Below are positions 736-44,523 of a stretch of 64,000 nucleotides of DNA, one piece after another. The stretch lies in contig QPGO01000165.1 of NCBI GenBank assembly GCA_008632985.1, forward strand, positions 1 to 64,000. Direction: 5' to 3'. Position 1 is the stretch's first letter; each line of letters begins with the position of its first letter. The DNA comes from Psammoneis japonica (taxonomy: Eukaryota). The notes under the pieces were generated by a model. The model was not told the DNA's origin. It searched no databases and worked only from the letters and a program-made list of their open reading frames with translations. Position numbers and translations under genes: made by a program.

Positions 736-772
<37 letters not shown>
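736..772. repeat. (TC)n microsatellite; a separate poly-C run lies at 964-986
   Basis: Directly visible. Confidence 0.95.
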
Positions 773-775
<3 letters not shown>

Positions 776-10758: not shown

Positions 10759-10921
10759 TTAGAAGAGTTCGGAGGTTCGAGTTCGAGCCGACGAGCAACG
10801 GTGGAGATAGATTGGAAATGAGGAGATGAGTGAGGACCGACGGCGTTTTATCCATTGACTCTATCCAGTGTACTCATCTCTTGTCGATACTAAAGCCATA
10901 AGTTACACTGGTTATACAAAA

Positions 10922-15168: not shown

Positions 15169-15548
15169 GTCAGATCAGAGTTGCAAGACAAGCACAGCCA
15201 ACTTGCGAGATTGACGCAAGGTCGTCCTGAGATATCAAACCGGGGAGTCAATACTCGCATGTCTAGATGGATAAGGTGCTTACTCTCTGGAAAGACTTTA
15301 TCAGCAGAAAACATCTGCGTGCGTAGCTTTCCACTGGCCATTGCAACTACCATACGATTTGAGAGGCTCCGTAGCTACAAGTATCCGATAATAGCTCTAC
15401 CTCTTGTCTACTGTAATCTTTGTCAGTTATTCTGATCACGAGATCCCGCCAAAAGAAAGGTGTGAGTAAAAATTCGACAAGGACTTTTTTTGAAAGAAAC
15501 AAAGTAAAGTAAAGCAACTCATTCGATTGTGAATGCAAAAATCGATTA

Positions 15549-22300: not shown

Positions 22301-24126
22301 GATGGCTGGCACACACTCCAGGACTGGGTTTGGCGCAGAGGGGATGATTTCATTGACACAACACGTGAGGATGGGTGGGCAACATGTCGGTGCAAAACAA
22401 TTCATCAGGTGCGTGCATTGCGGCGTCAGTGCACAAACAGATTGGCCCTCTCACGCTGCTTGTGTGTCCTTCATGACAGTCAGCACCCATGACACAACAA
22501 ACACAGGATGCCACAATGTCCAGATTGTGGGAATGTCGGTCGTGAGCTCGGAGGTGGCAAAGAAAAAGTTCATGGATGGCCAGACAACCAATTGCGTTAC
22601 AACTGCGGTGCACCAAGGACAAAGTTCGTGATGCACGATGACATCAAGTTGGCCTTTGGGAGCAAAATGCAGAAAAAGGTTTGCAAGCACCTCAATGTGG
22701 ACGTGGGTGACTGTGCAGTTTGGTGGGAAGAGAACAAGGAAAAGGTGAGGAAAAGACTCAACAGGAGAAGAAACAACAGACAGGAGGCATTTAGAAAGAA
22801 GATGGTTGGCAAGTAAAATTCGGGAGGCGGGTTGATGAGGTGAAGCAGTGTTCTCACCAATTGTTTCTTGCTCAGAAATGGCTAAATGCGAGGGACTAGA
22901 AACAGTCAAAGACATCAAAAAGGGCAGGCGGTTGGCTCATGCTCACTTCTGGTTCTTGGAGAATTTCTGCTCAACAGCGGCGGGCATGGAATGCTGCAAA
23001 ACAGCAGACAACCAAGGTGTCAGCAACTGGCTGACAACAAGCATGGAAGCTTTTGCAAGGCTCATGTGTGACAACTGCTGCAAAATGGCCTTGTCAGTAG
23101 CAGAGGTCGAGGAGGAATTCGAAGATGACGGAGGGGCGCACCAAACGACACAACCCGTGGCCCCAAAATGCACTTTCCTGGGGAAAGGCACAAAACAAAA
23201 TCAAGGATGGAACCAGGGTGGGATCAAAAAGCACAACAAACTCTACGATGCTGTGGCGAAGGAGAGAGAACAGATTGCAGCAGAGTCGATGCACAGCACC
23301 TGCAAACAAAGAAATCGGAGAGCGCTCATGGCAAGAAAAGAAAAAAGAAAAAGAAGGACAGCATGAGCGGATGGGCTGCTCCAAAAGCTGATTGGAGCGA
23401 CAGCAAAAAGGAGGCCGCTGGAAGGAACAACGAGCAAGTGAACAAAGAGGAAGAGGAAGAGACTCCAGAAGCAGCAGCGACCGACAACAGTGCTTCGACA
23501 CAAACGGGTTCTCGACAAAGAGTGGTGAACAACAACACACAGAAGCAACACAGGGTGCAACGAGGAAACGGGTGGAACAACAGCGGTGTTCACCAGTGTG
23601 CAGCAGAAAATGACGGTGGCAGCGATGTTGACCACGAAATCCACTCAGTTCAGAAGCAGCAGCTGTGTTGAATGTGAAAAGCGTCCAAGTGTTGCACTGT
23701 AAAATGATGGGCATGTTGTCCGTGTGCTTGTTGGATTTAAAGCAAGGTTTGAAAGCAATGTGAATCGGGGGCTGTCACAAAGGCAAATTGTCACATGGTG
23801 AAAAGGGGGCCAGTGTTGCACTTGACAATGTCAGGAACATTCTCCGCATGGTTGTCACATTTAAATTTTCTGGTGTTGCATGACAAAAAAAAAACCAGAT
23901 GGAAAGCAAGATTTCTGCCACGGCATGCAAGAATTTTAAAATTAAATTTAACAAAATTCTGCCATGAAGGGCAAGAATGTCGCACGCAAGTTCGCGCGCG
24001 ATGTCAGATTGTTGCCCCACCAGACGCAATCACAAAAAAAGTGATTGTCCTGTGTTTGAGCCAGTTTGTTTCATGTGCAGGTTTTTGCTCTGAAATGTGG
24101 GAAGTGATGGACTCCCACCGCCATTG
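16349..24126 (+). repeat. Direct segmental duplicate of 1745-9519 (second, 5'-truncated copy of the Plavaka-like element, right end at 24043)
   Basis: Near-identical sequence at an offset of about 14.6 kb; junction at a GGA microhomology (1745-47, 16349-51). Confidence 0.95.
20118..21740 (+). pseudogene. Plavaka-type transposase, second copy
   Basis: Translation nearly identical to 5511-6779. Confidence 0.7.
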
Positions 24127-25008
24127 AGAAGCTTCTTTTACGTCGGTGAAAAGTTGGAAGCAATTTTCTGGACTCTCGAAAACAAGCTGCGATGCTCCTG
24201 CTGCTCCACCGCCACCACTCCCGCCACCGGGCACTGCTGCAAGTTCCCCACCACCTCCTCCTCCCGCTGAAACGAGTGCAGAACAACAAGAACAACCCAA
24301 AGACGCCATTGCGCTTGCGGCCGAGTCAGTCTCTGCTACAGCTCCAAACCCGGGCACTTGCGAAGAAGCCACGTTGGATTGCAAGCGTCTCGTGCAACTC
24401 GACACCCACGATGGCTTTCGCGTGGACATCAACAAGCAGCTCAGTCCCTTCATGGCGGTTGTGCATTCCTTTTGGCTCGGCACGTCCATGCTTCCCGACG
24501 GACGCAACCGGACCTGCACCTTTGTCATGCACGCAGCCGATGAACAGGGACTTCTCATGGCCCGTGTCGATCCCGAACGCGGCTTGGTCGATGGACGGAT
24601 CCATCGTGCGCTCTTGGGCGGGTTGGCCATGGTCAAGGTACAAGCCGGTCTAAGTGTGAGTGGTGAACACGATCAACTCTTGGCTGAACTGGACTTTGGT
24701 GGAGAAACGTGGAGGGGTGACCTCAAGTGCGGCTCCATGGGTGGGGGGCAAGTGTTTGGATGCAATTGCTTTCAGAGTGTAACAGACCGGCTCGCCATGG
24801 GAGGGGAGGGCATGCACCTTGCTGCGAATCAAAACATTCTTTCCAATTGTGCCGCCAAATGCACTGCGCCCGTCAGAACGGAGGACGGTGACGGCGGCGG
24901 GTCTAGTGCGATTTGTGCCAACTTCAACACGTCCCAGGGACTCTTGTTGCTCAATTACAAACGAGTCGTGACACCCAACCGTGTCACACTTGGAGCCGAG
25001 TTGGAGTG
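24127..25008 (+). pseudogene. TOM40: TOM40 fragment, truncated at both ends and TpA-hypermutated
   Basis: Corresponds to 10942-11823; lacks the ATG because of a deletion equivalent to 9520-10941; 7 of 8 Tyr changed to Cys/His; fused to transposon sequence at 25009. Confidence 0.9.
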
Positions 25009-28000
25009 GGTCGACACAGAGGAACAGCAGTAAAACGCAAGGGCGCTGCAGCAGCGTCTAAGGGCAAGCTTGCCCGAAAGCAAAAAGATGTGGACGCGGT
25101 CCCGGTCCCAGCGCCAAGCCCGATGAAGTCACAAAAAACACAGCATGCTGAAGCGGCTCTCGGTGCTGAAACGGCAGCAGCACAAGACAAAGCGTTGAAT
25201 CAGCCGGATGGTCAATTGATGCGTGGGTTGGGTTTTGATGTTTTTGAGTCAGAACCATTGGATGAAGGTGTTGCATTTGAACAAGACGGCGAAGGGAAAG
25301 AACTGCATGCTGAGAAACAACCAACCATCATTGCATCGTCAGCACCGGAGATTAATTTTGCCAAGAAGCATTTCTTGGAGTCTCTGCCAACTCAGTTGAA
25401 GCAATTGACAGAAGACAAGGAAGCAGCACAACTTTTGGACGAGTTGGCAAACATGGTGGCGGCGAAAATTCACTCCGCTGCCAGTGCAGACCCCAAAGTG
25501 AGTCCCGAGTCAATGTCGCATTGCTTTGAAATTGATGGAAAAGCGGGTGCGGAGTCAGCCGCACAAACTGTGCATCCAATGCAACTTCGTCACAATAGAG
25601 CTGTTTTGGATTTTGATTCTGTTGCAACAGTGCCTTTGGATGAAGAAGCCGCATTTAAATGCAAAGCAAATGGGCAAAAGCGCAGTGAAGCTGCGAAACG
25701 GCAGGCCAAGGCACGAGCCATAAAATCAATTGTGGACGCTGCACTCAACTCATCCGACAACCACAATGATCGCACTGTTGCCTTAGCGGGGGCACTTGCT
25801 CATCCAAAAATGTCAAGCATCACTGAGAATGTCAATCCAGTCACGCCGGAAACAAAAATGCTCAAAGACGCTTTCCAGCAGCAGCAACGAATGATCGAAC
25901 GAGCTAGTGTTACAAACAAATCCCGGGGTCGAACCAATGATGACAAACGTTCGTCAGTTGAGACTGTTCTAACATGCTGTGCCGATTCACCTGATAAAAT
26001 CAGAAAAGGAAACAGCTCTCTCCTGATTGAGACTCTTGGTTTGGCGAAAAGCACCGGGTGCCGAAACACAAAGAAGGCGAAAGCGAAACGTGCCGCACTC
26101 TCTTCGAATGCAAATGGTGTTTCATGGGCAAATGTCAAGCGTCGAAAGGGATTTTCTAAAGTCACACCGAAAATTCGTGAAGCACTTGTCAAATGGATTT
26201 TGGCACACCCCCAGGTTGTGCAATCGCCTGTCAAGGACGAGACTGCACCAGTGCAAAATCCTGACACAACTGGCGATGTTAAAAAAGTCCGTGTCCCAAA
26301 GTTGTTGCTCCAAGTGAGCATCCAAGAGCTCCACAATGATTTGACATCTGAGGAAGAACATGGTTTCAAGCATGCACGAGATGCTGATGGCAATGTCATC
26401 ACAAGTGACACTGCTCTACGTCATCTGCTCCCAGAGCAGATGTGCAAAATGTCGCCACGACACAAACAGATGTGCGGTTGCGAGTGCTGCATTGCAGTGC
26501 GGAGCCATCAGCAATCCCTCAACGCGTGGCGTCGTCGTCATTTACAAAAGCTGAAAGATGCGTCTCGTGATGAAACATTGCCCCAAGAGGAGAAAGAGAA
26601 ACCAGAAGTTCGTGCAACTGCACACAAGAGTGCGATGCCACCCAATGGGCAGCCACCACATTCCATGCCACGAGATGCAATTGCCGCCATTCAGTGCGAG
26701 GAAGTGGCTTCTGTGGGACACCTGCACTGGCGATGTGTCCTGGGAAAATGCCAAGATTGCCCCAAGCATGTCACTCTAGAAGAAGAAAAAGGTGCGGATG
26801 AGGCGAGTGCACCGCGGATTGACTTTCATGAATGTGAAAAGATGACCACGTGCACCATTCATGGCGTCCCACCAAACAACCCAAAGGAGTGCCAAGCATG
26901 CCAAGGGTTTGCGGCAGGAATGAAGCGGGGTGAGGTGCACAAGCGGAAGCACCTTGCCAAAAAAAACGCAACCATGGGCAAGTTTGCAAGGAATCATTGT
27001 GTCCCTTCTTTGGAAAAGCACCGATGCCATCGACCGCATGTCCGCATCCTCTCCAGGAATGGTTGCGGCGGCGAGCGTGAGCTGGCCTTTCAACGCGACA
27101 TCGGCTCTGTCAAGACAAGACGTGATTGTGCAGAACGACTCCCGGCCAAGTTCAACATGGAGATGCAGAGCGAACATTTTGGAAATGGCCGCTCACTTTC
27201 AATCGAAGGGAGCACTGTTGAAACCCATGCAGCCGAAGCAATTGCAAGTGGACAGATTGACAACGAACTGCCCCAATGAGACCGATTCCCTCTGCAGACT
27301 CACAGTCACTTTTCAGATGACTCACGCCAAGACGCATCCACTGCCCACGCCCACATGGATGAATTGTTAGATTTCCTGCTCAATCAAAAAAACGTAATGC
27401 AAATTCTTAAGATGCTGTGGGATGACACAGATGGGTGCTCAAAACAACATCGATGTGCCAAGGCATTTCTGCTGCTTACGATGTTGAGTTCCAAACATGA
27501 GATTGCTGTCGATCGAGCCATTGGTGCTCCTGAACATGGGAAAGACTTGGCAGATGCCATGAATGCGATGGACAAACGGCGCCTTGCCTCATGCATGTGC
27601 CTCATCGGAACTCCAGAGGCAAATGACAAAGATGCAAGATTGATGGCCGCGGAATCAATTGTTGACTTTGGTTTGAAGAGCCTTGCAGAGGAGTGCAAGA
27701 GGCTCTGTGAGCTGCCGACGAGAGTGCAGGGCGTCAAGGGTCACAAGAAGCATGCAAAACGAGAGGCAAATGCAAGAATGCAAGAGAGACACTGCCACGT
27801 GCAGAAGAAAGAAGACGCACCTTACACCAACATGGCCGTCAAGGCCCATTTCCCCGACGACTTGAAACACATGGAGTCCTGCAACCTTCGCACCGATTGG
27901 GAACTTGGGGTGGGTTGGATTGCGGTGCGCAGGATCCCGTGTGCCTGCGCTGGGTGCCTTGCTCAACTGGCTCTGGATTGGGTGCCAGGAGTGTCTCGAG

Positions 28001-28824
28001 ACAAGCAGCCTCGATGCAAAGGCGGAAACAAGGAGTGTGAGAGGTGGCCAATGTTTGAAGGATTGAACGATTGGCGCATCGCACCTTTGGTCCGGGTTGC
28101 CAACAAGCATGAGGCAGTAGAAGCTCTTTCTCAGCAAGAGCTTGAAGAGGCGCAGGATCATGTGCTGACAGGGATTGAAACAAGGATGGCAGAGGGGATT
28201 GCAGTTGGCAACAAAGGAGCGTTTGCGACAGAAGACGAGGAGACGAGTGGCCACCATGTTGTCGAATGGACTAGCGAAGCATGTGCACTACAGGATGACA
28301 AGGCACTCACCGATTTTGACCCTCCAGTGATGCTCAAAGCCGGCACACTTGTTGCGGATGCCACACATCTCAATCAGGTACCACGAGCCCCACTCTGGCA
28401 CACGCCATCAGCCATTTCCACCACTGTTGTTGCAAAACAGGTTGTCGCTTCACACCTTGATCTCCTTCCAATCTCTGAAGACAACCCTTTGCCACAGGGG
28501 TGCCGCAACAAGAGAGAAGCAATGGACAAAGGTGGGATGCAGGTGAAGGGCGAAAGCCACGAAGAGATCATTGAGGAACTGGCACATCGAGTTGCTCTCG
28601 ATCACGAGGAATTCGACGAAAATGAAAGCAGTGAAGATGAGGGGGGAAACGAGAGTGAGATGGAAGGTGATGATGACATTGACAACAGCAGCGACAGTTG
28701 GTTGCAGCACAATGTTTCACGAATGCAACTCACATTGGCGCGCGTCCTTGCATCACCTGCGCCCAGGTACAGAATGCAGTTCCGTTGCAGTGCTAAGAAC
28801 AAAAACAGCAGCACAGCCAATTGA
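25009..28824 (+). pseudogene. Large Cys-cluster DDD/E transposase (Sola-like), frameshifted near 27280
   Basis: Motifs CGCECC, RDCAER, QSEHFG..SIEG, WDDTDGCSKQHRC, EHGKDLADAMNA, RRIPCACAGC. The superfamily call rests on remembered motifs plus the 4-bp TSD of the related MITEs. Confidence 0.6.
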
Positions 28825-29900
28825 TGCCTTGCATCTGCCACAACATTTGCATCTGCATCAACATCCAACATCGCATCAACATCCAACGCCTTGCATGCAT
28901 CCACTTGCCTTGGGAGCAAAGAAAGGCAGAAACGTGCAGTGAGAGATGCCGCGGTGCGTGACGGGTGACAACGAAACGAACGCGTTTCTACAACACATGA
29001 GAACCCAATGATCACTCACCAGAACACTGGCCGGCCATTCCCAGCATCTGTGACTGCAGTCCCATCGATGCCCAATGTTTTACCTCTCTCTACTTTACGT
29101 CGTAATCGAGAGAGCGAAAAGGAAGAAACACGTCGCGAGAGACACACCACGGGTAAAAAACCAAAAGAACGCGCTTGCACAAAAACTAAGAACCCAACAA
29201 TCACTTGCAATCAGACTAGTTGACCGTGTCTAGACTCTGTTGCCACAGTCGTGTGCATGCCCAACGTCTTGCAACTCTACTCGAGAGAGTGAAAAGGAAG
29301 AAACACGTTGTGAAAGATGCGTGATGAACACGTGACGGGCGAAAAATCAATGGAAGGCGATGCGACAACAAATCAGAGACAACCACTTGCTTGCCAACAC
29401 ATCAATTCGACAAAAAAGCATCTGCAACTGCATCTGCATCAACATCCAATGTCTTGCAGTCTCTTCTTGTTGTGTGTGTGCACGAAACAGCAGAAAAAAG
29501 CGTCACATTGAAAGCAGCACAATTTCTTTGCTTCTTGCGCAGATTCAGAAATAGAAGCTGTTTGAAGCACTAAAACCGATGTGTCTCATGCGATGATGAT
29601 GCTAGAGACACATGAAAAGGATGGTCAACAAAAGACCAACGTAAAGACTGCTGTCATGGCCAAGAAGGCTTCGTCGCTGTTGGAGAATGCATGAGGCGAA
29701 TTTTTGCCAGGAGTGAGTCTTGGTTTTTGTTGACATCCTAAGTCACCAGGAGAACATTTCTGTCATTTTTTTATTCGTTTTGAATGCATTCATTAAGATG
29801 ATTTATTTCCTAAGATTCGGATGTCACATTTAAAAGAGCTCGTACGTAGGCTTCTACGGCCGAATGTCACACGGAGTCCCGCCTGGGGCTGGAACGCGTC
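25009..29900 (+). mobile_element. 5'-truncated Sola-like DNA transposon; probable partner of the MITEs at 38423 and 39110
   Basis: Right end gtcacacggagtcccgcctggggctggaacgcgtc (ends 29900) matches the MITE TIRs; carries a large DDD/E transposase. Confidence 0.7.
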
Positions 29901-30495
29901 TTGTCCTGTGTTTGAGCCAGTTTGTTTCATGTGCAGGTTTTTGCTCTGAAATGTGGGAAGTGATGGACTCCCATTGCCATTGTCACTTGTTTTGCGCTGC
30001 TGGCAAATTCAATGCCATCATCTCCTGCAGAGCTGTCTTCTCTTTGCACGTGTCTCTCTCTTGGAGCACAGCTGCACGAGGAATGCCAAGCCTTTAGCTT
30101 TCTTTGGTTTCTCTCATGTCTGGACCAATGGTGGTGCAATCAAGATGAGAGGAGTGTTGAAGTGATGGTGAGCATGTGGTTGGCACCTGCGCCATTTTTG
30201 CTCTCTGCCTTTGGTGTGTTGCACGCACGCCAGTGGCTGCCTGGCTGCGATGATGTGACAGCAACACTGGAGCACTTGACATGAATGGTTGCCATTGTCT
30301 GTACATTGCACTTTTGTCTTTGAAATGGATTGCTTCAGAGACCAGAAGAAGCAATGATGTGTTGTTTGTGCTTCCTCTTCCTTCAACAACCACAGGAACT
30401 CACTCGAGCGCAGAGAGCAAACACACAGACGTTCGTCGCGCAACTCGCGCGATGCCACGTCACGGCCGCTCCTGCAACACATCCATGACCCGTTA

Positions 30496-31220
30496 GACCC
30501 TGTCCAAACACTGTCACATGCATGATCATACCTGACATCACAGCACCTAAAATGAGCCTCTTCGAAAAAATCAGTGGTTGTCAGCCCTGTGCATGATGTA
30601 ATTTTAGGCCATGCCAACTTTCACGAGGATGTTTGTTCTCGCGAGAACAGACTTCCTCGGAAACATCATACCCCAACATCATGCCCCACCGACGAAACAC
30701 GAAAACAACTGACATGCATCGTTTTTTGACACGTCCAAAGTGCGTGTGGCTGTGCATCATATGAGGCAACCACATGAGACCATGCATGAGCCGCTTGTTG
30801 TCTTTGGGGGGCTTTGTGTGCCATTCTGGACTCTTCTGACACAACCATTTTGCCAAACAGTTTCTTAAAATAAATTCATGTCACACACTCTTACAGACAA
30901 CTGATTTAGCCATAAGTTGCACACAAGCATGATTTTTTTGTCAACAGGTGTCCATTGCATGGCTTGTTGTCGCCTTGTGGTTGCGTTTTCGTCGTCATGG
31001 TCATGTCGCTCTCGTCGTGTTGTTGTCGCTGGTTCATTCATGTTGCATCTGGTGTTGCTTCACGCACTGCAAGTTTGAATCATTCGATTAATGTCTGTGA
31101 GGTGCTGTCATGCGCACGAATGTGTTTGGACAGAACATTGTGGGCATGACCTGTGACGTCATCATAAAAGCCTGCGTGACGTGGGTGTGATCACACCTGT
31201 GACAGTGTTTGGACAGAGTC
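30496..31220. mobile_element. Second copy of the Harbinger-like MITE, hypermutated
   Basis: Same TIRs and TTA flanks as 10034-10758. Confidence 0.8.
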
Positions 31221-31383
31221 TTAGAAGAGTTCGGAGGTTCGAGTTCGAGCCGACGAGCAACGGTGGAGATCGATTGGAAATGAGGAGATGAGTGAGGACC
31301 GACGGCGTTTTGTCCATTGACTCTGTCCAGTGCACTCATCTCTTGTCGATGCTAAAGCCACAAGTTACACTGGTTGTACAAAA

Positions 31384-32505
31384 ATGGGAACGTCAACTTC
31401 CAAAGAAGCTTCTTTTACGTCGGTGAAAAGTTGGAAGCAATTTTCTGGACTCTCGAAAACAAGCTGCGATGCTCCTGCTGCTCCACCGCCACCACTCCCG
31501 CCACCGGGTGCTGCTGCAAGTTCCCCACCACCTCCTCCTCCCGCTGAAACGAGTGCAGAACAACAAGAACAACCCAAAGACGCCATTGCGCTTGCGGCCG
31601 AGTCAGTCTCTGCTGCAATTCCAAACCCGGGCACTTGCGAAGAAGCCACGTTGGATTGCAAGCGTCTCGTGCAACTCGACACCCACGATGGCTTTTGCGT
31701 GGACATCAACAAGCAGCTCAGTCCCTTCATGGTGGTTGTGCATTCCTTTTGGCTCGGTGCGTCCATGCTTCCCGACGGACGCAACCGGACCCATGCCTTT
31801 GTCATGCAAGCAGCCGATGAACAGGGACTTCTCATGGCCCGTGTCGATCCCGAACGCGGCTCGGTCGATGGACGGATCCATCGTGCGCTCTTGGGCGGGT
31901 TGGCCATGGTCAAGGTACAAGCCGGTCTAAGTGCGAGTGGTGAACACGATCAACTCTTGGCTGAACTGGACTTTGGTGGAGAAACGTGGAGGGGTAACCT
32001 CAAGTGCGGCTCCATGGGTGGGGGGCAAGTGTTTGGATGCAATTGCTTTCAGAGCATGACAGACCGGCTCGCCATGGGAGGGGAGGGCATGCACCTTGCT
32101 GCGAATCAAAACATTCTTTCCAATTGCACCGCCAAATGCACTGCGCCCGTCAGAACGGAGGACGGTGACGGCGGCGGGTCTAGCACGATTTGTGCCAACT
32201 TCAACACGTCCCAGGGACTCTTGTTGCTCAATTACAAACGAGTCATGACACCCAACCGTGTCACACTTGGAGCCGAGTTGGAGTGTTTGCCGTCAAGCCT
32301 AGAGTCACGGGTGGCGGTTGGAGCCAAATTCAAGCTGTCACGGTCCAAAATGGCTCTTTGTGCAGACGGAACGGGCAAGGTTCAAAGCACGTTGGAGGCA
32401 AAGCTTGGCATGGCACCGGGTTCGCCATCTTTGAACTTTTCGGCAGAACTGGATCATGCCAAGGATCAAATGAGGTTTGGATGTGGCATTGCGATTGATG
32501 GATGA
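31384..32505 (+). pseudogene. TOM40: Full-length but hypermutated TOM40 copy; ORF open, probably non-functional
   Basis: Same length as 10922-12043; 8 of 9 Tyr changed to Cys/His, several Thr>Ala, Ile>Met and Val>Ala changes; stop TAA>TGA. Confidence 0.85.
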
Positions 32506-33257
32506 TGCGACGAACCGAAAACGATGTTTGTGCTTTGGTTAAAACACGCATGATGCTGAATTGCCAGACAATCACAGTTTTGTGAGGGCAGTGCATCGCG
32601 CATTTCAATCATTAAAATCAAAATTTAAGAATTTCTTTTTTCCGCATGAGACTGTTGTTGCCACATCACATGGCAATGCAGCAACATCTTTTTGCTTGTT
32701 CGAAAATGGCTTGACAATCAATTGACAATTGAACAGCAAACAAGCTTGGCTGCATGTTGTTTTCTCTTGCGACAAGAACGGGCGTGATGCTGCTGATCAT
32801 TGTCACAGTGCAAGACTTCTTGTTGACTTGTTGGTCATCGTGCTCCTCATCCAGAGCTAAAGCCAATGAGGCCCATCGTCTTCCGACTGTGAAGTGAACT
32901 ACACGAAAGGGCCCAAAATCCGGGTCTCTCTTTGTACATTGTTTGTGCGTAAATTTGCATTCAGTCGAAATAGATGCTGCAGCAAAAATTTCTTAGAAAA
33001 AAGGAAATTTGCTTGTTCGAAGCCATTCTGTGAAATTGCTGAATCCTTCGGGGTTTGCCGGCGTGCACAGTGGCGGGCTTGCGCGTGTGTCACTTCAAAA
33101 CTCGAAAGCATTCGCTTCGACAATGAGAAAACAATGAGAAACTTGCTTTGCGACGGCATGTTTTCTTTCTCCAGTGACGGCAACAACAGAAGCTTTTTCA
33201 TTCTCTGTCACACCATGTAACCTCGTGTTTTGATTCTAATCCTTGAAAAGCTGCATC

Positions 33258-35630
33258 ATGGGTCGTCATCATCATCCTCGTTACGATCGTCGTTCTTCCT
33301 CCAGTGCAATTTCTTCTTCTTCTAGCACATCTTCCTTGTGCCACCGTCTCGATCAAGCGCTCCATCCTCCACGATGGTCCAGCACGAGCAGCAGCGGCAT
33401 TAAAAGTACAAGCAAAATTTCGTTGCGTTCCTCTCATCATGGCCGCATGCGTCGTCAACAACGTGCGTCATCCAAATGCGAGCTGAAACGAGCCATCAAG
33501 TGCGGTCAGCGTCGAGTGCTGCCGGGAAGAAGAAGGCTCAAATGTCGATTCAATGGTTCAGTGGTTGTTGTTGATGGATGCACAAAAACGGAAATTACAA
33601 GTTACAAAGAAGTGATGGACGCTGATGCACCGTTTCAAACCATTTGTCCAGAGCAACGGAAATGACATGACGATGCTCGCAAACTCAATCAGCAAGAGGC
33701 ATGTTTGAACTGTGCACAACATGAACACATGTCGTAAGTTGACCAAACCAACAGAACAAGACAACTCATGTTTGCTTTTTGTTTTCCATCTATGCAGCCA
33801 CGACAATGCAAGAGCCACTCCATTTTGCTCATTGACAAGAGCGGATCGATGCACACGCCGGACGTGCAGGGTTGCAATTCTTGTCTTGCTTCTGTGTTTT
33901 TAGCCATTGCTCAAGACTTTGTCCGTCCTCGCATTGACGCAGCCGGACGAGGGATGCAGGGTGCCATTTCGGTGATGATCATGGGCGAACGACCCTTTTT
34001 ATGGATGAATGCGTGGCCCACCGACTTTGTCACGTACAATGCCTTTGTTGCGGCATTCAAGCATGGTCATGTCCAAGCCGAGGGACATTGCTGCTGCCGA
34101 CCATCAATTGACACGGCTCAAACAATCTTTGACCGACACGACTCTGCCACGTGTCAATTGGTGTTGGGAATCTTTGCCGATGGACGACCCAGTGACTCGT
34201 CCGTGTTCAAAACCAATTGGGACCAATCGGTCCAATCCATTTCCACATCCGTTCAATCCATGGCAGCCAAGATTGGCAACCGATTGCAAATCCGAGCCAT
34301 TGGCATGGGATCTGCCAATCAATGGCAAACGCTGGATGCTGTGTGCCAAGTGGCTCGCAATTGTGGTTGTCAAGCGCAGGTGGAAACACCCAGCATGTCC
34401 TCGTCCAGTCTAGGTGCCGTGGTGAGCAGCATTGCAACGTCGCTTGCCACGTCACAAGTTGACAACCATGGTTCTTCTGATGATGGCGTCAATCGTGTCG
34501 TTCGACCGGTGCGTCGTGAAGACCGATCTCGTGTGCCGCTCTTGACGGAAGCGGTGGATGCTACGGATTTTGACATTTTCATGCAAGACAAGGTGGTTCG
34601 GGAAGAACACATTGGAGGAGATGCCTTTGTGCAAGCTGAGTTGCAACACCCGGAAGCCCGCGGTGTTGCAGTGCGCAAACAACCCTTTGATGAAGGCAGC
34701 GAACGGTTTGCCTGTCAATTCTTTGAAGTTGCACAAGACGGACGAACCGTCGTTGGAATGCCGCTGGTTGCCAAGGCGTGCAAATTTGTTCTAAACAATG
34801 ACAAGGATGAAGACGACGGTGGTGTGTCGTTGGAAGAGTACACGCACAAGTTTGTGACACGCTTTTGTCGTATTCATACCGTGGCAACCCAAATAGCAAA
34901 TGCCTTTAATGAACGGTTGGACAAGATTGCGCGTCTCGATTCGAGCGTGCCGCGTGTCGAGTTTCTACCCTGTTCGGTCTATCGTCTCGAGCACGACGAC
35001 GGAACTACGTCTGCCTATGTGGTGGAGCCTCGTCTCTTGGGAAGTTTCAAAAGTGGAATAGCAACAATGGGTGGATTCGTGAACGCAGTACAAAGCCATC
35101 ACCAGTGAAATCGATGGGCATCTCTTGTGGTGGTGGTTTGGTCCCCATCAAGGAAGAAGTAGACGAAGAAGTGTTGAACGAAGAACCCATGGACAAAGAA
35201 GAGGAAAAGTAGGAATCATCCAGTATGGATGTTGCCATGGATTCATCAGGTAACGCTGTGATTGATTTAACCACAAGCGACGACGATGACGAGGGCGAGT
35301 GCTTGTTTGTGCAGGGAGACGATGTTGCCCAGGCCTTTTCTCACTTTAGCTATTCGCTAGAACGCCAGAAACTACTCGTGTGTGACTTGCAAGGTGTCTA
35401 TGATCGTCAGGAACTTTTGCTTCGTTTCACAGATAGATCCCGTCATTCACCACGTCGTCTACAAGGAAACCGAGGGTGCAGCAAACAAACGTGGCAGCAG
35501 CAAGTACGGACGAACCGACCGTGGTAACAAGGGTATTGCTGACTTTTTCGATACGCATCCATGCAATTGCCTTTGCAATATAGTAACCAAGGGTTTTCTT
35601 CCAGTCAAGACTACGAATTTTGAAAAGTAA
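33258..35630 (+). pseudogene. Second vWA/alpha-kinase copy
   Basis: Extra stop at 33663-65, 1-bp indels near 35038 and 35440, same internal TAG. 5' part TpA-mutated, 3' part not. Confidence 0.85.
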
Positions 35631-36010
35631 GTCAGATCAGAGTTGCAAGACAAGCACAGCCAACTTGCGAGATTGACGCAAGGTCGTCCTGAGATATCAA
35701 ACCGGGGAGTCAATACTCGCATGTCTAGATGGATAAGGTGCTTACTCTCTGGAAAGACTTTATCAGCAGAAAACATCTGCGTGCGTAGCTTTCCACTGGC
35801 CATTGCAACTACCATACGATTTGAGAGGCTCCGTAGCTACAAGTATCCGATAATAGCTCTACCTCTTGTCTACTGTAATCTTTGTCAGTTATTCTGATCA
35901 CGAGATCCCGCCAAAAGAAAGGTGTGAGTAAAAATTCGACAAGGACTTTTTTTGAAAGAAACAAAGTAAAGTAAAGCAACTCATTCGATTGTGAATGCAA
36001 AAATCGATTA

Positions 36011-38202
36011 TTATAGGGAATACGCATATGCAGACCCTGATGAATCACCGTTGATGCCACCGAATTGGGCCCCTACTCCAAGAACGGTTCCATTTGCGGA
36101 CAAGGATACGGACCCTCCAAATTCATCATTTTCAGCCTCACCATTCAATGGATCGCCCACTTGACTCCATTCTTGCATTTCAGGATGGTATTGAAAGACT
36201 ACAACTTGACCTGCGTCAACGAGTCCATTGACATCATGCCAAACACTTCCAACAGCCAACGCATTTGCGCTTCCACTCAACGACACGGACCAACCAAAGA
36301 CATCACCCGATTGTTGTGTGCGAAGGATTTGACCACGTGTTGTCTACAAGGACGTGGAATTATCGTACTGATAGACCACGGCATACCCATCATTTCTATT
36401 TGCACCTCCTGCCACAATGTGACCCGTGTCATCAAGAGAAAAAGACCATCCAAACTTATCAAGAGCGCCAAGGCCGTAGATTGGATCCCCCATTGATTGC
36501 CAAGAGGATAATGCTGAATTGAATTGGTAAAGTTGAACCTGATTGGTATTATCGCCGCCCATTGCAACAACGGTTCCCGAGCCACTAACGCTAACAGAAA
36601 AACCATACTGAGCATCTTCTTCTACGCCAAGAATTGTTTCTCCAAGTTGGTTCCAGACAGATGATCCGGCATTGTACTGAAACACTTGAACTGCTCCCGA
36701 TCCCCTTCCATTGATCGTGTCGGCCCATCGTACCCCAATCGCAACAACGTCCCCTCCATTCGACAACGAGACGGAACAACCAAACAACTCACCGCCACCT
36801 TGGCCGAGAAGGACACTACCGCGCTGGACCCAACGATCCGTGTTGGCATTGTACGCATAGAAAACAACATAACCAGCTCCATCATCTACACTCATTTGAT
36901 GTGCTCCGATTGCCACAACGGTGCCGTCGGCATTTAATGATACGGAGTCACCACCGTGTGCCGCCAAATCTTGACCCATGGGCGACAAGGAGTTTGCATT
37001 GGAGTCGATTCGAAAGACAGACACACAACCGGAATTGCCGTCATTGTGTGGTGCTCCTACAGCCATGACTGTTCCGTCTCTGGAAATGGCAACAGATGTG
37101 CCAAAACCATCATTCGGAGATTTACCATGCAAGGCTTGTGCCACAGGTTCCCATGGACCATTCGGAAGCAAACCGCTTTCTGTTGGAGAAAGTGTTGGGG
37201 AGTCCGTTGTCGGGGGCTGCGTTGGGGACTTAGTCGTTGGGGATGGAGTTGGATCGAGAGTCGTTGACGTGGGAGTCGCACTGCCGGTTGCTGGAGGCAG
37301 CATGGGCGCCGAAACTGGTGTTTGTGTGGTGCCTCCAGACGAAAAAGAAGAGAAAGAAACCGCAACATTAATGGCCACAACAGCGGGCACGAGCACGACA
37401 CCTGCTCCCCATGTGATGCAGCACCTGCGACGTTTCCTCTGTGCTTCCAGCTCGAGAGCACTGGTGTTGTCTTGATTCTCTGGATGATTCGTGTCTTGGG
37501 GAGGTGCTGATGTTGTAGCAGCAACCACTTGAGCCACCTGAGCTCCCTCAACAGTTTGCCTGAGCCGAGTGTCTCTTGTTCAAGCCAATCCATCGAATCG
37601 GCATCTGCCAAATGAGCAACTGTGACTGGAGTGCTGTCATTGCGATGTGCTGGTGATGGTGGCGGAGGCATGGCACCACTTGCAGTTGGGTCGAGATCGA
37701 AAGGGACTGTGCTGATGTTGTCTGTGTCGTGTCTTGTTCGAGGAACCATCCCACCGCCTTGACCAACTGCAACTGCGCCCACCATTGACGAAATTGGCAA
37801 ATCCTCTTGCACTCCTCCCCTTTGGGCAGGCCGCATGGGCATGAAATCCGCATTGTCTGTTGGAGGAGGAACAGTCGCCTGGTGATTCTCATGGATCCTT
37901 TCCAATTCTGAAACATGATGCGCGTCAGGATGTCGACTCGCCGTGGTTTTGTTCTCTTTCCATCCTGTCCTGGAGGTGGGCACACTGTGATTGTGAGCAA
38001 GTTGATTGCCTGAACTCAAAGCTTGCTCTTGATGACGGTGAGCGTGACACTTCTCGTTTGGGCCTGCAACTGGTTTTTCCATCGTTTCTTCCTCTGCAAT
38101 CACTTCATCGGTGTTGTTGTGGTTCCTTCTTCTGCCACCACGCCTGTTGCACATGTCGTCATCACCCATTGCGGGCGGAGGCTTGTCGGGATGGCGGTTC
38201 AT
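36011..38202 (-). pseudogene. Single-pass membrane protein with a PT-rich stalk and FG-GAP-like beta-propeller repeats, disrupted
   Basis: Disordered N-terminus, RKRRR followed by a hydrophobic segment, PTPSPT repeats, multiple FGxSVS(L/I)SxxG..VAVGA repeats. Frameshift near 37540 and in-frame TAG at 36344-46. Confidence 0.75.
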
Positions 38203-38422: not shown

Positions 38423-38812
38423 GACGAGTTCCAGGTCTAGGTGGGACCTCGTACTACTGAACTGTGACATCGATGGTTTTTTGAATCACGTCGTATGTCG
38501 CGCACGTAGATTTCTACGTGATTTTTTTGATATTTTGTGTCATTTTACGGTACACTTATTGAGCGATCCGTCCAACAACTTTTGACATTTCTTGTTACAG
38601 CGCGATTCTATAATGTCTTAAGAATCGCGTAGGGCAGGCGCATTTGCAAAAACGTCGAGTGGTAAGAGGCATAATTGTACCACAAACTTGGCCGTTTATT
38701 TGATGTTGAAGATAAATATATCCATTAATTAAATTCTCGTACTACGGAGCTCGCACGTAGAATTCTACGGGCCCAATGTCACACGGAGTCCCACCTAGGG
38801 CTGGAACGCGTC
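38423..38812. mobile_element. MITE of the Sola-like family, 390 bp
   Basis: TIRs gacgagttccaggtctaggtgggac and gtcccacctagggctggaacgcgtc; 4-bp TSD ACAA on both sides; subterminal near-palindrome cacgtaga.ttctacg at both ends. Confidence 0.85.
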
Positions 38813-39109
38813 ACAAGGAGATGGTGCAGCAACAGAGCATCCAGCCACAGCACCGCAGCACCAGTGGCTGCAAGAGGCGCACCTGAGCGACGAGAAGCAA
38901 GGCAAAAAACAGAAAAAGAAGCACCTCTGGGCTGCGCGTTAGAGCAGCAAGCAGCCAGAGCAACAAAAAGAAAACAGGAAAAGGGGAACAGAAAGAAGAG
39001 CCAAATCCAGGCATTTTGTGTTGGCAAAAAGCTTGGGAAAGTGCAGCATCTGAGGGGTGGCCAGAAATGATCTGCGAAGGTTTTTTCATTTTGTTTGAGA
39101 AGACGACAT

Positions 39110-39954
39110 GACGCGTTCCAGCTCTAGCTAGTAGGTGGGACCTCGTACTACTGGACTGTGACATAAATGTTTTTTGTCATCCGTCGTATGTTTTGCACGT
39201 ACATTTCTACGTGTTCTATTGTAAAAAATTGTTCCACACTGCCTCTTTTGCGAAGCCAAAGGCTTTCTGTTTTCTACATTTATGACAATAAAAATGCGCT
39301 GGGTACATTCTTTAATGTCTAAAGAATATACAGTACCCCGGCAAACTATAAATAACGTACTTCAAGTTTGGAGGAGGAGATACGTTCGCAAAATAGCCTC
39401 TACAGGCCTCGCTGATCTAATCGGCGCGGCGTAGCGCGCACATCTAGTGTTTATTGTTTTTCGTATTATTTTCGCGAGATTGTATTGTTCACGAATAGAA
39501 ATAATATTATTTCTATATTTGACCGTAAACATAGTGTTTATTATCTCCATAAATAAATTCCGTTAGAGGAAAAGACACGTAGGACATTTTCTTTTATAAG
39601 CTGATGACATCATAATACATAAATTAATTAGGCCGTCGACGGGGTGTTAGGCATTCTGACACAAGCATAAGCCCAGAATGACTCCTATGTCGTCATTGAT
39701 GACGTAAGTTCAAACCACACTAAATGTTCGAATAAAAGTTACCAAAAATGCATTTGTCACATTTCTTCGTCGATAATGTCTAACGGATAAGTAATCGTAG
39801 GAATAACAAATAATAAACACTAGATCGGCGACCCCTGTATTTCTGTTGGCGATCATTCACATTTGCATTGCTTAACAATTTTACTACGGAGCTCGCACGT
39901 AGAATTCTACGGGCCCAACGTCACAAAAAGTCCCACCTAGGATTGGAACCCGTC
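39110..39954. mobile_element. MITE of the same family with a nested insertion, 845 bp
   Basis: TIRs gacgcgttccagctctag..gtgggac and gtcccacctaggattggaacccgtc; 4-bp TSD ACAT on both sides. Confidence 0.85.
39403..39837. mobile_element. Nested Tc1/mariner-type MITE with TA flanks
   Basis: Left TA|caggcctcgctgatcta..gtgtttatt, right aataaacactagatcggcgacccctg|TA. The left TIR has an insertion of about 27 bp. Removing this element returns the host MITE to about 410 bp, close to its 390-bp sibling. Confidence 0.7.
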
Positions 39955-41078
39955 ACATGATGAGCTGCACAAAGAGAAGCAAATCAACTTGGCACAGCCT
40001 TGGCCAGGGTGGTGGCTCAAGAATGCACACAGTTGCCTGTGGGGCACCAAGCAGCACAGAAAAAGCAACAAGAAGTTTGTCAGCGGGGCGAGCTGATGAT
40101 TTTTCACAAGTGCCATCACCAAGCTGCACTCAAGGACAAGGAACAACAACAATTTGTGAAGCAAAGTGTGGTGCACAGACAAGGAGTTTGTGCAGAAGTG
40201 GTGTGTCCAGCAGCCACAGTGCTGACAGCTGCAGGAAGCAGAGCAAAAGAAGCCAGGCAGGGTGGCACCATGTGTGCCAGCTCTTGTCACAGACAGCCCT
40301 GTGCGCTGCATCTTGAAGAAACAGGTTGAAGAGATGAGTGAGATGCCAAAAAGGAAAACTGTGAAACTGTTTTGGGTGCCAAAGCAAACTGTTGAGATGC
40401 TCTGCAGCACCACCCAGCAACAGCTCATTGCCGCCCCTGCACCAAGCCAGCTGAGAATCAGTGCATGGACTGCACAGTGTTCTCAGCACTGCTTTGGGGT
40501 GTGACCCAGTTGTTGTTGAGAGCTGCATCACAAAAAACTGCCTCAGTGCACTTGTCGCTGAATCTCCAAGCATGTGAAACAGCTGGAGCTTGCTGCTGAT
40601 GACACTTGTTTGCTGCTGCATGCTGCTTCTGTCAAATGAGAGCACATGCAAGTGTGTGCTCCATGACCTCTTCACAGAGCTGGAAATCATCTTTGCAGCT
40701 TTGGCACAGAGCTCCCAGCAGCACAGTGTTTTGCAGAAGCACCAAGATCACAAGCAACAGCAGCAGCAGCTCTGTGCACTCTTGGAGCAGCAAGCAGCCA
40801 GAGCAACAACAAAAAGAAAAGATGAGTGGAGCAGAAGTTCACAGGCGTGCAGCATCTGAGGTGGCCAGAAATGATCTCCAGCATCACGCACCAGTGCAAG
40901 GTGGGCAGCACCAGCGCAGAAGCAGAGAGGGCAAGAAAATGAGGGCTTGTTTTTGTGAGAAAAAACAAAGGTTTGCTTTTGTGAGGATGGCATGAGCAAA
41001 GTCAAGAAGCCACACAGAGAGAAGCAAGCCAACTTTGGTGTCTCTAGAGCTGCGGCAGCTGCCGGCATGGAGAGAGCA

Positions 41079-44000
41079 CAGCTTTCCCTGCAATCAAACA
41101 AAACGCCGTAGAATTTGTGCAGGACATGCCAGATTTTTGTGACGTGTCCACTTTGACGTCATCACAGTGATCTTGAAGCACGAGAAAAAGCACGAGACAA
41201 TGGCGCTGGTGGAATCGGCGTTTTTTGTGGTTTTGCTGCTGAGTCCTCTCTGATCCCCCTGTACAGCTTGGTGGCAAACACCCATCAAAATGTCACAAGG
41301 CAATGCGATCAGAGCGTCTCGGTCAACACCGACTGGCATCATCACTTTGCATTTCAGGGATGCGTGCAAGATGCCGAAGTTCCAGTGCAGATGGATCGAG
41401 GCGAACTGTTTTGTGCATGTGACAAGAGGCCTGTGCAATTGACAAAGATTTGAACTTAAATGCCAAGAAGTTGAACAGTGCATTGAGCAGAGTTGGGTCT
41501 CCATTTCCAGACATTGACAAGGACACGTCTGAGAATGATGGCGGGGTTTTCCGAAAGCAGTTCCGACCGAAGGGAGAGCCGTCCATTGTGGCGCACTGTG
41601 CCTGCAAAGAGCAAGAATTGCCAAGGCATGTGCCCTCAACAATCAATGATCCCAGGCATGTGATGTTGACTGTTGAAGAGTGCAACAAGAAAGTAGAAAC
41701 TCGAGCCGGCTCCAGCAAGAGAACAGTGGGGTATGACGCAAATGAGCATGCACAGACGTTGCAGGAAAACGAGCGAAAGAAAAAGAAAAGGAAAGAACTG
41801 CTAGAGTCCTCTGCAACAGAGGCAAAATCATCCAATGATGGTGGTGCTGATGAAGATGATGCTCCTGAGAATGATGCCATGCCTGCCGATGATTTGACCG
41901 CTATTGTTGGCACCTTCTGGGATGACACGACCGTGCGGAACCTGTTCAATGCAGATGATGGAGAGGATGCAAAAAAGGCAATTGAGAAACAGACAGATAA
42001 ATTGACTTCTGGATTTGCTTTTCATGATGGATGGAAAGAAGTGATCAAAGGAGGTGACCCTGACAACCTGTGCACACCCAACGATGCTCATGTGATTCGA
42101 TTGAGATGCCAGCATCTTGCGATCGTGCTTGACCATGCGTTGAAGAAGCTGCCAAAAAGGAACACTGCATGGCTTGACTGCTGTCAGCATGCAATCGATG
42201 ACCTCAGCGGTGCAGGTGTTAACTTTATAAAAAGTCGCCAAACCGCAGCTGCTTGGTGTCGCATCTTTGGGAATCTCAGTTCCTTTCCTCATCCCCGACC
42301 AAAAGGAAAAGGTGACCCACCGACATTTGAAGCACATCCAAAGACGAAGCGGAAATTCATTGAGTTCATGACAGCAAACCTTTCTCGACTTTCCACTGAG
42401 GTGGCCACAGACCACTTCCACGAAGTGCTTGTCCCGGAATTCTTAAAGAGAGAGAACAATGACCGTCGCAAGAACGGGGAAGACATCTTGGAGTCGGAAC
42501 GGGAGTTCCTGAATCAGTGTGGATTGCTCACCGGGGAAAACCAACCATGCATTTCTTCCAGTGCAGTTTCCAACTGGATGAATCTGTTTGGTTTCCGGCA
42601 TGGACCAAACAAAAAGATGAATTGTGTTGACAATCATGAACGTCCCGACAATGTGAGGTGTCGGAATGCGATGGTCCGTCGACACTTGATGATGGAAGAA
42701 CGATGCCCACGTTGGATGCAACTTCCAAAAGCCGCTGCCATGGACCTTGTTGAAGCTGAAGCTCTCCCAGCAAAAATGGGGCATGAATGCCAAGTCGATG
42801 GAGAAGATTTTATCGAGTGTCATGTCGATGCTGTCATTGACCCGGAGCATCCAAGCCTTGTGCCCAAGCTGTCCGTGCAATTTGGAGGAAGTGAAAGTGT
42901 GAGAAAGGATCCGAATGTAAAGCCTGTCATGACATTTGGACAGGACAAGGCTGTTTTTAAGCAATGCTTGCCAAGCACAAGCAGCTGGTTGGGTCCCAAA
43001 GGTGAGCGGCCGCTGCTGCCCAAAGATGATGGAGAAGGCGTGATGCAGTCTGCATTTCAATGTCGAGAGGTCGGCCTTGTTCGAGATGGAGACATTTCGG
43101 AAGAGCGGCTCCGAGAGATGAATGAAACTTGAGCAGGCAAATGCTGCAATGATGAAGACGCTGCAGAAACAGCATTCAGCAAGAAGCAGCACAAGCCGAA
43201 GTTGAAGAAAAGTCCGTTCATCCACGAGTTCGAGTGTGGAGCGAACAGCGACGGATGCTGGAATTATGACCACATGTTGGTGCAATTGGAGGATTGCGTG
43301 GATTGCTTGAAAGTGCTGCATCCTCAATTTGACTGTCGTTTCCTTTTTGATCATTCTTGCGGGCACAACAAGCAGAGAGCAGACGGACTAATCTGCAACA
43401 AGCGCACGATGAACGCAGGAGTCGGCGGCAGTCAGAACAAGATGCATCCCACTGAGATTCTTCAGGCAGAGAGGGCTTTCTAGGTCCTCATGCTGAAGCA
43501 GTTGGTGTGTCATCTGCAGGACAAGTGCAAACAATGGCATTCAGTGAGGAAGACCAGGGACCACACTGGATGACGCCGGAAGAACGAGAAGCTGAGAAAT
43601 GTGACGCACCTGTTGAGGGTCAAACTGAAACTCGGAAGTTCCTGCGTGATGAAATTTTTGACAAGCTTCTACAAAAGAACATCAAGAATGTCAGGGGCAA
43701 GAAAAAGGATGAATTGATTGACACAGCAAAGAGCAACAACACACCTGTCGAAGAAACCATTCAAAAGGTGAAGCACGGATGGGTCAACAAGCCGAAAGGA
43801 TCAAAGCAAATTTTGCATGAGCGAGGATGGATTGATCCCAACAACCCTGGAAAATGCACTGTGGATGGCACAAAGGGCAAAGATGGAGAGATCGATGAGT
43901 CAACATCTCTTCTTCACTTGATGGCTGCTTGCAATGATTTCGTCAACGAAGAGACGTTGTTGCAAACCATGGGTCGCAAAGTGGGTGTGACCATTGATGG

Positions 44001-44523
44001 AACGCCAAAGTGTCACCCAGAAATGGCTGGGGAGGGCATTGAACATTCTTGGGGACTCGCAAAGCAGCATTGTCGTTTGCAACCTTTGTCAAGAAAGAGG
44101 GGAAAGCAAACTTTAGAGAGTTGGTGCGAGAATCAATGTCATCAAGCGCACTCACGACTGACAGGATGCGAAAGTTCTCGCGACGAGCACGACAATGCAT
44201 TTGTGCTTGCATGGTTCTTTCACAACCTGATGTGTCTCAAGAGGTTCAGCATGAAGCCTTGTCTCTTGAGACCATTGAAAAGCTTGTCAAAGAGTTCAAA
44301 ACGCACCGCAGTGCGATTGATTTTGACAAGGGTTTCATTGTGAGGACGCTTTTCGCGGGGTGAAAAGACATTTTTTGCAGGTAAATAAAAAACTTAAGAA
44401 TATAGATAAGTTTTATATATAACGCTGCTGGCGATTTTACTGTGGCTTTTTGTATGAAAAATAAATTTTCCTACCAGTAACGTAGGATTCATACGACGTT
44501 TAGGTTGGTTGCAGGGAAAGCTG
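41079..44523 (+). mobile_element. Tc1/mariner-IS630 superfamily transposon, 3445 bp
   Basis: TIRs cagctttccctgcaatcaaacaaaacgccgta and tacgacgtttaggttggttgcagggaaagctg; right flank TA, left flank CA. Confidence 0.85.
41450..44363 (+). pseudogene. IS630/Tc1-like DDE transposase with stop and frameshifts
   Basis: Motifs VDNHER, GQDKAVFKQ, LLPKDDGEGVMQSAF, FLFDHSCGH, PKGSKQILHERGW, TPKCHPEMAGEGIEHSWG. Confidence 0.8.

Follow-up and report, generated by a model that had tools for sequence, protein, structure and literature searches.

A 64-kb window of diatom nuclear DNA (positions 1 to 64,000 of contig QPGO01000165.1 of Psammoneis japonica) was found to have lost the dinucleotide TpA from long tracts by transitions to TpG or CpA. 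Over the whole window TpA occurs at 0.26 of its expected frequency (observed/expected ratio, obs/exp), with CpA and TpG raised to 1.47 and 1.52, and this depletion is a mosaic in which TpA-normal blocks alternate with blocks almost free of TpA. TpA is the ancestral state, the changes obey a rule set by the neighboring base, and the tracts in which they occur have also lost CpG. Our interpretation, which we hold as probable though well short of certain, is that silenced DNA was hypermutated at the DNA level from TpA to TpG/CpA, in a manner best read as adenine deamination; the deaminase step, when taken alone, is rated lower than this statement as a whole. The agent is most likely an enzyme, and its reaction the deamination of adenine to hypoxanthine in DNA. 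What would draw the enzyme in is silenced chromatin or a recent duplication of the DNA.

Spectrum of base changes in the hypermutated tract

Self-comparison of the window identified duplicated segments, including two copies (B1 and B2) of a segment that encodes TOM40 (Table 1). The two copies differ by 181 substitutions. When read in the direction B1 to B2, 74 of these were A>G and 61 were T>C (135 together), almost all at TpA, and the commonest changes were TAC>TGC (31), TAT>TGT (23), GTA>GCA (19), and ATA>ACA (18). The outcomes at the 170 TpA sites of the strictly delimited B2 tract were TG (65), CA (55), unchanged (48), and other (2), with single transitions accounting for 120 of the 122 changed sites. 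Hits on adenine were strongly dependent on the 5′ base, as 121 of 348 adenines were hit after T compared with 2 of 723 after A and 1 of 573 after G. The suggestion of a first-pass annotation of this DNA that the pattern looks enzymatic is backed by this limitation to a 5′ T and by the near absence of anything other than single transitions.

The tract was further examined for signs of the strand and structure of the substrate. Hits were not grouped into strand runs within the tract (66 runs, compared with 60 ± 5.3 expected), and no strand bias was detected there (57/106 vs 41/90). By a crude test based on 61-nucleotide DNA folds, hairpin loops were not preferred, with a predicted unpaired probability of 0.82 for hit and 0.84 for unhit adenines (P = 0.89). 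The chromosomal duplicate is still in place, and the tract extends over its coding DNA as well as over promoter and intergenic sequence.

Effect of neighboring bases

The first-pass annotation had proposed that TAY (RTA on the other strand; R, purine; Y, pyrimidine) is hit and that YTAR is largely spared, based on a small sample from TOM40. Its counts were reproduced exactly: among 31 ancestral TpA sites in the range 31384 to 32506, 14 of 16 A>G hits had a 3′ pyrimidine, 6 of 8 T>C hits had a 5′ purine, and TpA survived at 3 of 4 YTAR sites and 4 of 27 others. The rule held when the sample was enlarged. Over positions 30901 to 32640 (77 TpA), 31 of 33 A>G changes had a 3′ pyrimidine and 21 of 24 T>C changes had a 5′ purine, while survivors numbered 10 of 12 at YTAR and 8 of 65 elsewhere. 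Across the whole tract (174 TpA), 22 of 31 YTAR sites survived compared with 31 of 143 in other contexts (Fisher P = 2.9 × 10−7), and removal of the TOM40 coding range left the sparing of YTAR in place (18/26 vs 23/113, P = 3 × 10−6).

Each adenine of a TpA was next counted as one target, which gives two targets per site, one on each strand. On this basis TAY targets of the whole tract were hit in 98 of 202 cases and TAR targets in 23 of 146 (P = 1 × 10−10), with the four trinucleotides at 53/109 (TAC), 45/93 (TAT), 17/91 (TAA), and 6/55 (TAG). The effect of the +1 base in the tract was highly significant (chi-square P = 6.5 × 10−9), and positions −3, −2, +2, and +3 were weak or null (P = 0.017 to 0.46), which is unconvincing after five tests. 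Survival by site class was 10/59 for RTAY, 11/50 for YTAY, 10/34 for RTAR, and 22/31 for YTAR. Within the TAA targets, TAAY was hit at 15 of 51 and TAAR at 2 of 39, an exploratory observation of small numbers that is uncorrected for multiple testing.

Polarity of the change

The direction assumed by the first-pass annotation, with TpA ancestral and the change A>G (equivalently T>C), was borne out by several comparisons. At eight positions of TOM40, B1 encodes tyrosine and B2 encodes cysteine or histidine; the tyrosine is present in 107 to 120 of 120 homologues at seven of these positions and in 69 of 120 at the eighth. The B1 open reading frame (ORF) is intact, with 373 amino acids and no stop codons. 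In addition, Tyr137 of TOM40 has become His in B2 and Cys in a third, partial copy (C), which implies that the ancestral codon was TAC. Of 17 sites mutated in both C and B2, 7 are CA in one copy and TG in the other, indicating that C and B2 were mutated independently; the same 5 sites survive in both. The loss of tyrosine extends to a mobile-element protein encoded in a TA-free block, the uncharacterized ORF 24913 to 27279, in which Cys or His was found at all 7 alignable columns of conserved tyrosine (Tyr in at least half of 25 relatives), while control columns of F, W, C, and H were kept with two exceptions. From the aligned sequences, the polarity is thus settled in favor of TpA as the ancestral state. 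The ancestral state of B1, the loss of TpA at conserved tyrosines, and the CA/TG swaps together exclude a C>T reading similar to repeat-induced point mutation (RIP) of fungi, in which C>T at CpA would have made the TpA of B1. Diatoms reportedly have DNMT4 enzymes, relatives of fungal RID, and this speaks for such a reading, which is nevertheless refuted by the homologue counts, the divergent fates of Tyr137, the intact B1 frame, and the swaps between copies.

Residual TpA and the competing-risk model

The TpA that remains in the near-TA-free blocks was found to follow the same rule. Among 158 residual sites in the non-redundant blocks, 6 were RTAY, 34 RTAR, 41 YTAY, and 77 YTAR, compared with 201, 191, 203, and 117, respectively, among 712 sites in the TpA-normal blocks, which can only approximate the original make-up of the TA-free DNA. 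The YTAR share of TpA was 49% in the former and 16% in the latter (chi-square = 94.7, P = 2 × 10−20), and YTAR was the commonest class and RTAY the rarest in all five blocks that had at least 20 residual sites. The survival proxy by tetranucleotide, calculated from the redundant set, ranged from 0 for ATAT and 0.008 for ATAC/GTAT to 0.33 for CTAG and 0.55 for TTAA. All seven residual sites named in the first-pass annotation (1146, 1164, 2495, 2864, 6796, 7246, and 7354) were TTAA or CTAG; its broader statement that the residue is largely YTAR stood in that YTAR is the largest class, but must be tempered to about half of the sites (77/158).

A competing-risk model was fitted in which every TpA has two independent targets, each with a hazard that depends on the base 3′ of it. 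For the B2 tract the hazards were 0.27 (A), 0.92 (C), 0.16 (G), and 1.05 (T), with a pyrimidine-to-purine hazard ratio of 4.3 (bootstrap 2.9 to 7.1); in the near-TA-free blocks the ratio was 4.0, and fitted and observed counts were close for all 16 NTAN contexts. One model therefore fits both data sets, with a 3′-pyrimidine target changed about 4 times faster than a 3′-purine target.

Tract edges, CpG decay, and order of events

The B2 tract is sharply bounded. Its first and last changed sites lie 4.4 kb apart; from 34839 on, good targets are untouched, and 0 of 71 TpA sites were changed from 34901 to the end of B2, leaving 1.9 kb of the duplicated copy unmutated. In B1 only 7 hits were found, all near its two ends, which adjoin TA-free blocks. 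A second edge was located within a single ORF (60223 to 61587, minus strand), of which the first ~300 residues contain no tyrosine and the last ~150 contain several, placing the edge at about 60.7 to 60.8 kb.

The loss of CpG coincides with that of TpA. CpG C>T changes occurred at 22 of 558 sites in the tract and at 0 of 200 to its right, CpG obs/exp was 0.51 in the TA-free blocks and 0.98 in the normal blocks, and TA and CpG obs/exp correlated per kb (rho = 0.80). This decay of CpG in the same DNA suggests cytosine methylation. The long repeats A1 and A2 differ by only a few CA/TG swaps; A1 and A2 lost their TpA before their duplication, and B2 and C were mutated after theirs.

Assembly letters in sequencing reads

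Contigs were built from the reads of a public run of unrecorded library type and compared with positions 25101 to 44000. Of 628 read-built contigs, 584 matched the window at a likeness of at least 99%, and one of 3,508 bp had 0 differences over 3,386 bases from 25101 to 28486 at a word depth of 31. The TG/CA letters were carried by read contigs at word depths of about 31 to 60. Alternative letters within B2 were those of B1, and both versions were present in the reads; an apparent heterozygosity inside B2 was rejected for this reason. An extra T behind position 35036 was observed in read contigs of two runs (depths 54 and 7). The alpha-kinase ORF of B2 ends early, with 446 amino acids vs 481 in B1, and it may have been shortened by an assembly indel at 35036 rather than by mutation.

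TpA-poor relatives in metagenomes

From metagenomes, 45 loci of the mobile-element family found in the window were also examined. Four of the 45 were TpA-poor (TA obs/exp 0.14 to 0.34, CpG 0.04 to 0.43), and none of the four had DNA similarity to the window. Two sediment contigs among these four (L025, 492 to 1318, and L013, 265 to 1091; TA obs/exp 0.14 to 0.17, CpG 0.04 to 0.21) were 93% alike over 827 bp and differed by 8 CA/TG swaps plus 8 sites with TA in one and CA or TG in the other. From sequence comparison, these swaps suggest that TpA erosion of this kind has also taken place in another organism; RTAY was not in excess around the 8 swaps. The tyrosine content was below 0.5% in 9 of 122 relatives of at least 200 amino acids, and these nine come from assemblies in ENA, Logan, and JGI.

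Proposed mechanism and alternatives

The DNA affected consists of old mobile-element sequence and redundant gene copies. In the mechanism we propose, each TpA presents two adenine targets, one per strand, each needing a 5′ T, and a target followed by C or T is struck about four times faster than one followed by A or G. The adenine would be deaminated to hypoxanthine and read as G, and since the first hit deprives the target on the other strand of its 5′ T, a site would change only once. The order of loss that was observed follows from the context rule: RTAY is lost first, YTAY becomes YTGY, RTAR becomes RCAR, and YTAR (TTAA, CTAG, and CTAA/TTAG) is last. The action takes place in sharp-ended tracts and on both strands, in DNA that also shows CpG decay. 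The strict need for a 5′ T, the restriction to transitions, the almost total loss of TpA, and the sharp limits of the tracts favor an enzyme over spontaneous damage or polymerase error. As a wider and more tentative proposal, a natural enzyme of diatoms may deaminate chromosomal adenine at T-A-pyrimidine as a 'reverse RIP' defense by which methylated, silenced, or recently duplicated DNA is cleared of TpA. Such a system would be the first in nature to hypermutate DNA through an adenine deaminase, and the same process would occur in at least one other organism (the sediment metagenomes). We regard this fuller version as possible, with appreciable doubt.

Several observations weigh against adenine deamination of silenced DNA as we describe it, or limit what can be drawn from the data. 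Pfam scans of 99 ORFs of the window found neither a deaminase nor a dioxygenase. A>G at T-A-Y is the same change as T>C at R-T-A on the other strand, such that thymine-directed chemistry fits equally well. The ADAT-type deaminases of fungal mRNA editing, in the accessible part of PMC11156358, prefer A or G at +1. The residual TpA of the four TpA-poor metagenome loci, which are short and of low coverage, shows no enrichment of YTAR (21/86 vs 582/2,999, P = 0.27), and the YTAR rule may therefore not be general. B1 was duplicated and yet was spared, for which selection on an essential gene could be a plausible candidate reason, and the sharp right edge of the B2 tract could come from gene conversion with B1. 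Two short inserts (Table 1) are unmutated inside TA-free DNA, one of them (38424 to 38859) with a bin word depth of about 42,800 compared with about 31 where the DNA is single-copy. Unless the inserts are very recent, a high copy number thus does not suffice for mutation, nor does lying within such a block. Finally, the reads and the assembly probably share one sample, and the read run is to that extent not independent.

The main rival places the modification on thymine. The T of R-T-A would be modified (e.g., to 5-hydroxymethyluracil or 5-formyluracil by a dioxygenase of TET/JBP type) and would mispair with G or be mis-repaired to give T>C. The strand-symmetric spectrum fits this chemistry, as does the 5′ purine of 40 of 55 T>C changes in the tract (17 RTAR and 23 RTAY); a T before A is reported to be favored both by the thymine-modifying enzymes of kinetoplastids and by the 5-hydroxymethyluracil of dinoflagellates. 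Yet 5-hydroxymethyluracil is a good pairing partner of A, no near-complete, transition-only conversion by it is known, and the Pfam scans of 99 window ORFs returned no dioxygenase. We consider a thymine target unlikely, though a serious contender. It is improbable that no targeting is involved and that TpA is lost rapidly genome-wide, with selection alone keeping it in genes and the TA-free blocks being simply unselected. The recognizable host genes do lie in TpA-normal blocks and the TA-free blocks gave no significant Pfam match; however, intergenic DNA between host genes retains TpA (50 observed vs 85 expected over 12001 to 13000), 71 consecutive TpA sites are intact in redundant B2 beside a tract with about 70% loss, two inserts within TA-free DNA stand at TA obs/exp of 0.89 to 0.99, and a tract edge falls within the single ORF 60223 to 61587.

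Very little weight is given to the remaining alternatives. Error-prone repair synthesis in silenced DNA by a polymerase of the eta type, the A:T mutator of antibody hypermutation, would account for A>G after T, which belongs to the WA motif (W, A or T) of this polymerase, but its errors include AA sites and transversions, whereas the tract has 2 of 723 hits after A, 121 of 348 after T, and 120 of 122 single transitions; this explanation is very improbable. Hyper-editing of double-stranded RNA by an ADAR-type enzyme, with the product copied back into DNA, is hardly more than conceivable. A>G is indeed seen on either strand of silenced DNA that may be transcribed bidirectionally, but ADAR has a weak neighbor preference with a slight enrichment of G at +1 (as far as the available part of PMC11156358 reports), and here a strict 5′ T is combined with TAG as the poorest target (6/55), strand runs are lacking, and the mutated duplicate is chromosomal, in place, and hit in promoter and intergenic parts as well as in coding DNA. 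An artifact of sequencing or polishing, such as long-read miscalls at a modified base, is only remotely likely: the extra T at 35036 reveals at least one small indel error in the assembly, but read contigs carry the TG/CA letters in B2 and the TA letters of B1 at the paralogous sites. The reversed polarity considered above has the least standing of all.

Comparison with known systems

The targeted hypermutation known from repeats is of the C>T type, as in fungal RIP and in the action of APOBEC on retroelements; RIP depends on an RID/DNMT-type enzyme before meiosis. The pattern in the window resembles RIP in that a single dinucleotide is densely hypermutated in tracts by transitions only, in striking redundant gene copies and mobile-element DNA independently in each copy, and in its co-location with signs of cytosine methylation. 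It differs in direction and product: RIP converts C:G to T:A at CpA, creating TpA and A+T-rich, methylated DNA, whereas here TpA is destroyed by A:T to G:C changes, the G+C fraction rises slightly (0.462 in the TpA-normal blocks to 0.493 in the TA-free blocks), no stop codons are made, long ORFs persist, and the host is a diatom. With respect to duplicated DNA, to which RIP is confined, B2 and C were struck, while B1, 1.9 kb of B2, and the high-depth inserts were spared. What is new is the chemistry and the lineage within repeat- or silencing-directed hypermutation.

Adenine base editors offer another likeness, in that an evolved enzyme of the TadA fold deaminates adenine in DNA; these are engineered and need single-stranded DNA opened by Cas9. 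We know of no report of a natural counterpart in a genome. Early adenine base editors preferred YAC. ADAR shares the clustered A>G changes; it differs in its RNA substrate, in hits clustered on one strand, in disfavoring G at −1, and in weak neighbor rules with G slightly enriched at +1 (PMC11156358, available part).

The first-pass annotation had linked the mutator to TadA through its natural tRNA target, UACG. The part of this idea that holds is the 5′ base. TadA and ADAT2/ADAT3 (Tad2/Tad3) convert A to I (read as G) with a near-obligatory U/T at −1, and the accessible part of PMC11156358 gives U at −1 as 100% in tRNA and above 70% in fungal mRNA editing; the requirement is satisfied in the tract, where 121 of 348 adenines were hit after T compared with 3 of 1,296 after A or G. 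The rest of the link fails. TAT (45/93) was struck as often as TAC (53/109), which does not support a C at +1; TACG (15/28) and TACH (38/77; H, A, C, or T) were alike (P = 0.83), which does not support a G at +2; the known enzymes act on RNA hairpin loops (tRNA A34), and the tract is genomic DNA hit on both strands with no loop preference; and fungal editing favors A/G at +1, the opposite of the C/T found here (PMC11156358, as above). TadA therefore survives only as a deaminase fold that requires a 5′ U or T. In the open literature, we found no description of TpA>TpG/CpA hypermutation in diatoms or elsewhere; PMC9258296 and PMC7884421, in the portions accessible, concern other subjects.

Should a natural DNA adenine deaminase be responsible, it would be categorically new. 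If an enzyme is the agent, then (i) a natural editor of adenine (or thymine) in DNA would exist, with interest for base-editing tools; (ii) diatoms, a group of major importance among marine primary producers, would possess a genome defense of a new kind; and (iii) it would explain the lack of TAA/TAG stops, tyrosine codons, and TA-containing signals across large parts of the genome. A 'reverse RIP' of this type, if real, would strip tyrosine codons and TATA-like and AATAAA-like signals while creating no stops. The ranking TAT ~ TAC > TAA ~ TAG and the hazard ratio of about 4 provide a quantitative fingerprint by which candidate enzymes may be tested.

Composition and other features of the window

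The TpA-normal blocks lie at about 10.0 to 16.4, 34.8 to 37.2, 38.4 to 40.0, 44.2 to 50.0, and 57.8 to 60.8 kb. Pfam scans of the window ORFs placed the host genes in these blocks, namely TOM40, a VWA-alpha-kinase, FG-GAP, phosphoenolpyruvate (PEP) carboxylase, and FKBP, and gave no significant match in the TA-free blocks. The TOM40 matches were diatom TOM40 proteins, and the PEP carboxylase gene (46027 to 47949) had its best matches in Odontella, Trieres, and Ditylum at ~73% identity. The near-TA-free blocks have a TA obs/exp of 0.09 and CA/TG of about 1.6; over positions 1 to 1000, for example, 0 TpA were observed compared with 59 expected. TAA and TAG are almost missing from these blocks; with two of the three stop codons thus unavailable, long ORFs occur on either strand. 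The 64 kb contain 81 ORFs of at least 150 amino acids, and such blocks would mislead gene finders into long false ORFs on either strand and over-called genes. The coordinates of the blocks, copies, and inserts are collected in Table 1.

Table 1. Coordinates of compositional blocks, duplicated copies, and other features in the 64-kb window
Feature	Coordinates	Strand	Remarks
Near-TA-free block	1..10000		Includes repeat A1
Near-TA-free block	16400..29000		Repeat A2, copy C, mobile-element-like ORFs
Near-TA-free block	39958..44200		
Near-TA-free block	50001..57800		
Near-TA-free block	60800..64000		Edge inside ORF 60223-61587 (−)
Repeat A1	1745..9519		99.2% identity to A2
Repeat A2	16349..24126		99.2% identity to A1
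Copy B1	9438..16351		6.9-kb duplicated segment, TpA normal
TOM40, copy B1	10922..12043	+	Intact, Porin_3 E = 1.5 × 10−25, taken as ancestral state
Copy C	24127..25008	+	Third, partial TOM40, 882 bp, 97% to both B copies, hypermutated
ORF without any tyrosine	24913..27279	+	788 amino acids, uncharacterized family, 1,087 detectable relatives
Copy B2	29901..36813		97.3% identical to B1
Hypermutated tract in B2	30326..34713		122/170 ancestral TpA changed
TOM40, copy B2	31384..32505	+	Frame open, 8 tyrosines to Cys/His
Short insert, unmutated	38424..38859		TA obs/exp 0.89, CpG 1.30, terminal inverted repeats
Second short insert, unmutated	39105..39957		Same ends, TA obs/exp 0.99, CpG 1.41

The ORF that contains a tract edge (60223 to 61587) encodes 454 amino acids and is mobile-element-like, with unnamed eukaryotic proteins as its nearest Atlas clusters (score 0.94). 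Three ORFs of the TA-free blocks (5511 to 6779, 20118 to 21386, and 52620 to 53981) share a similar N-terminal Cys/His motif resembling a zinc finger and lack a Pfam family; they probably belong to an uncharacterized mobile element. Across positions 1745 to 36813 the duplicated segments are arranged in the order A1-B1-A2-X-B2, in which X is a piece of 5.8 kb (24127 to 29900) that has the partial TOM40 copy at its start. The same 82 bp stand on either side of X (24045 to 24126 and 29901 to 29982, 97.6% alike), and a fragment related to the insert ends is present at the X/B2 junction (29836 to 29900).

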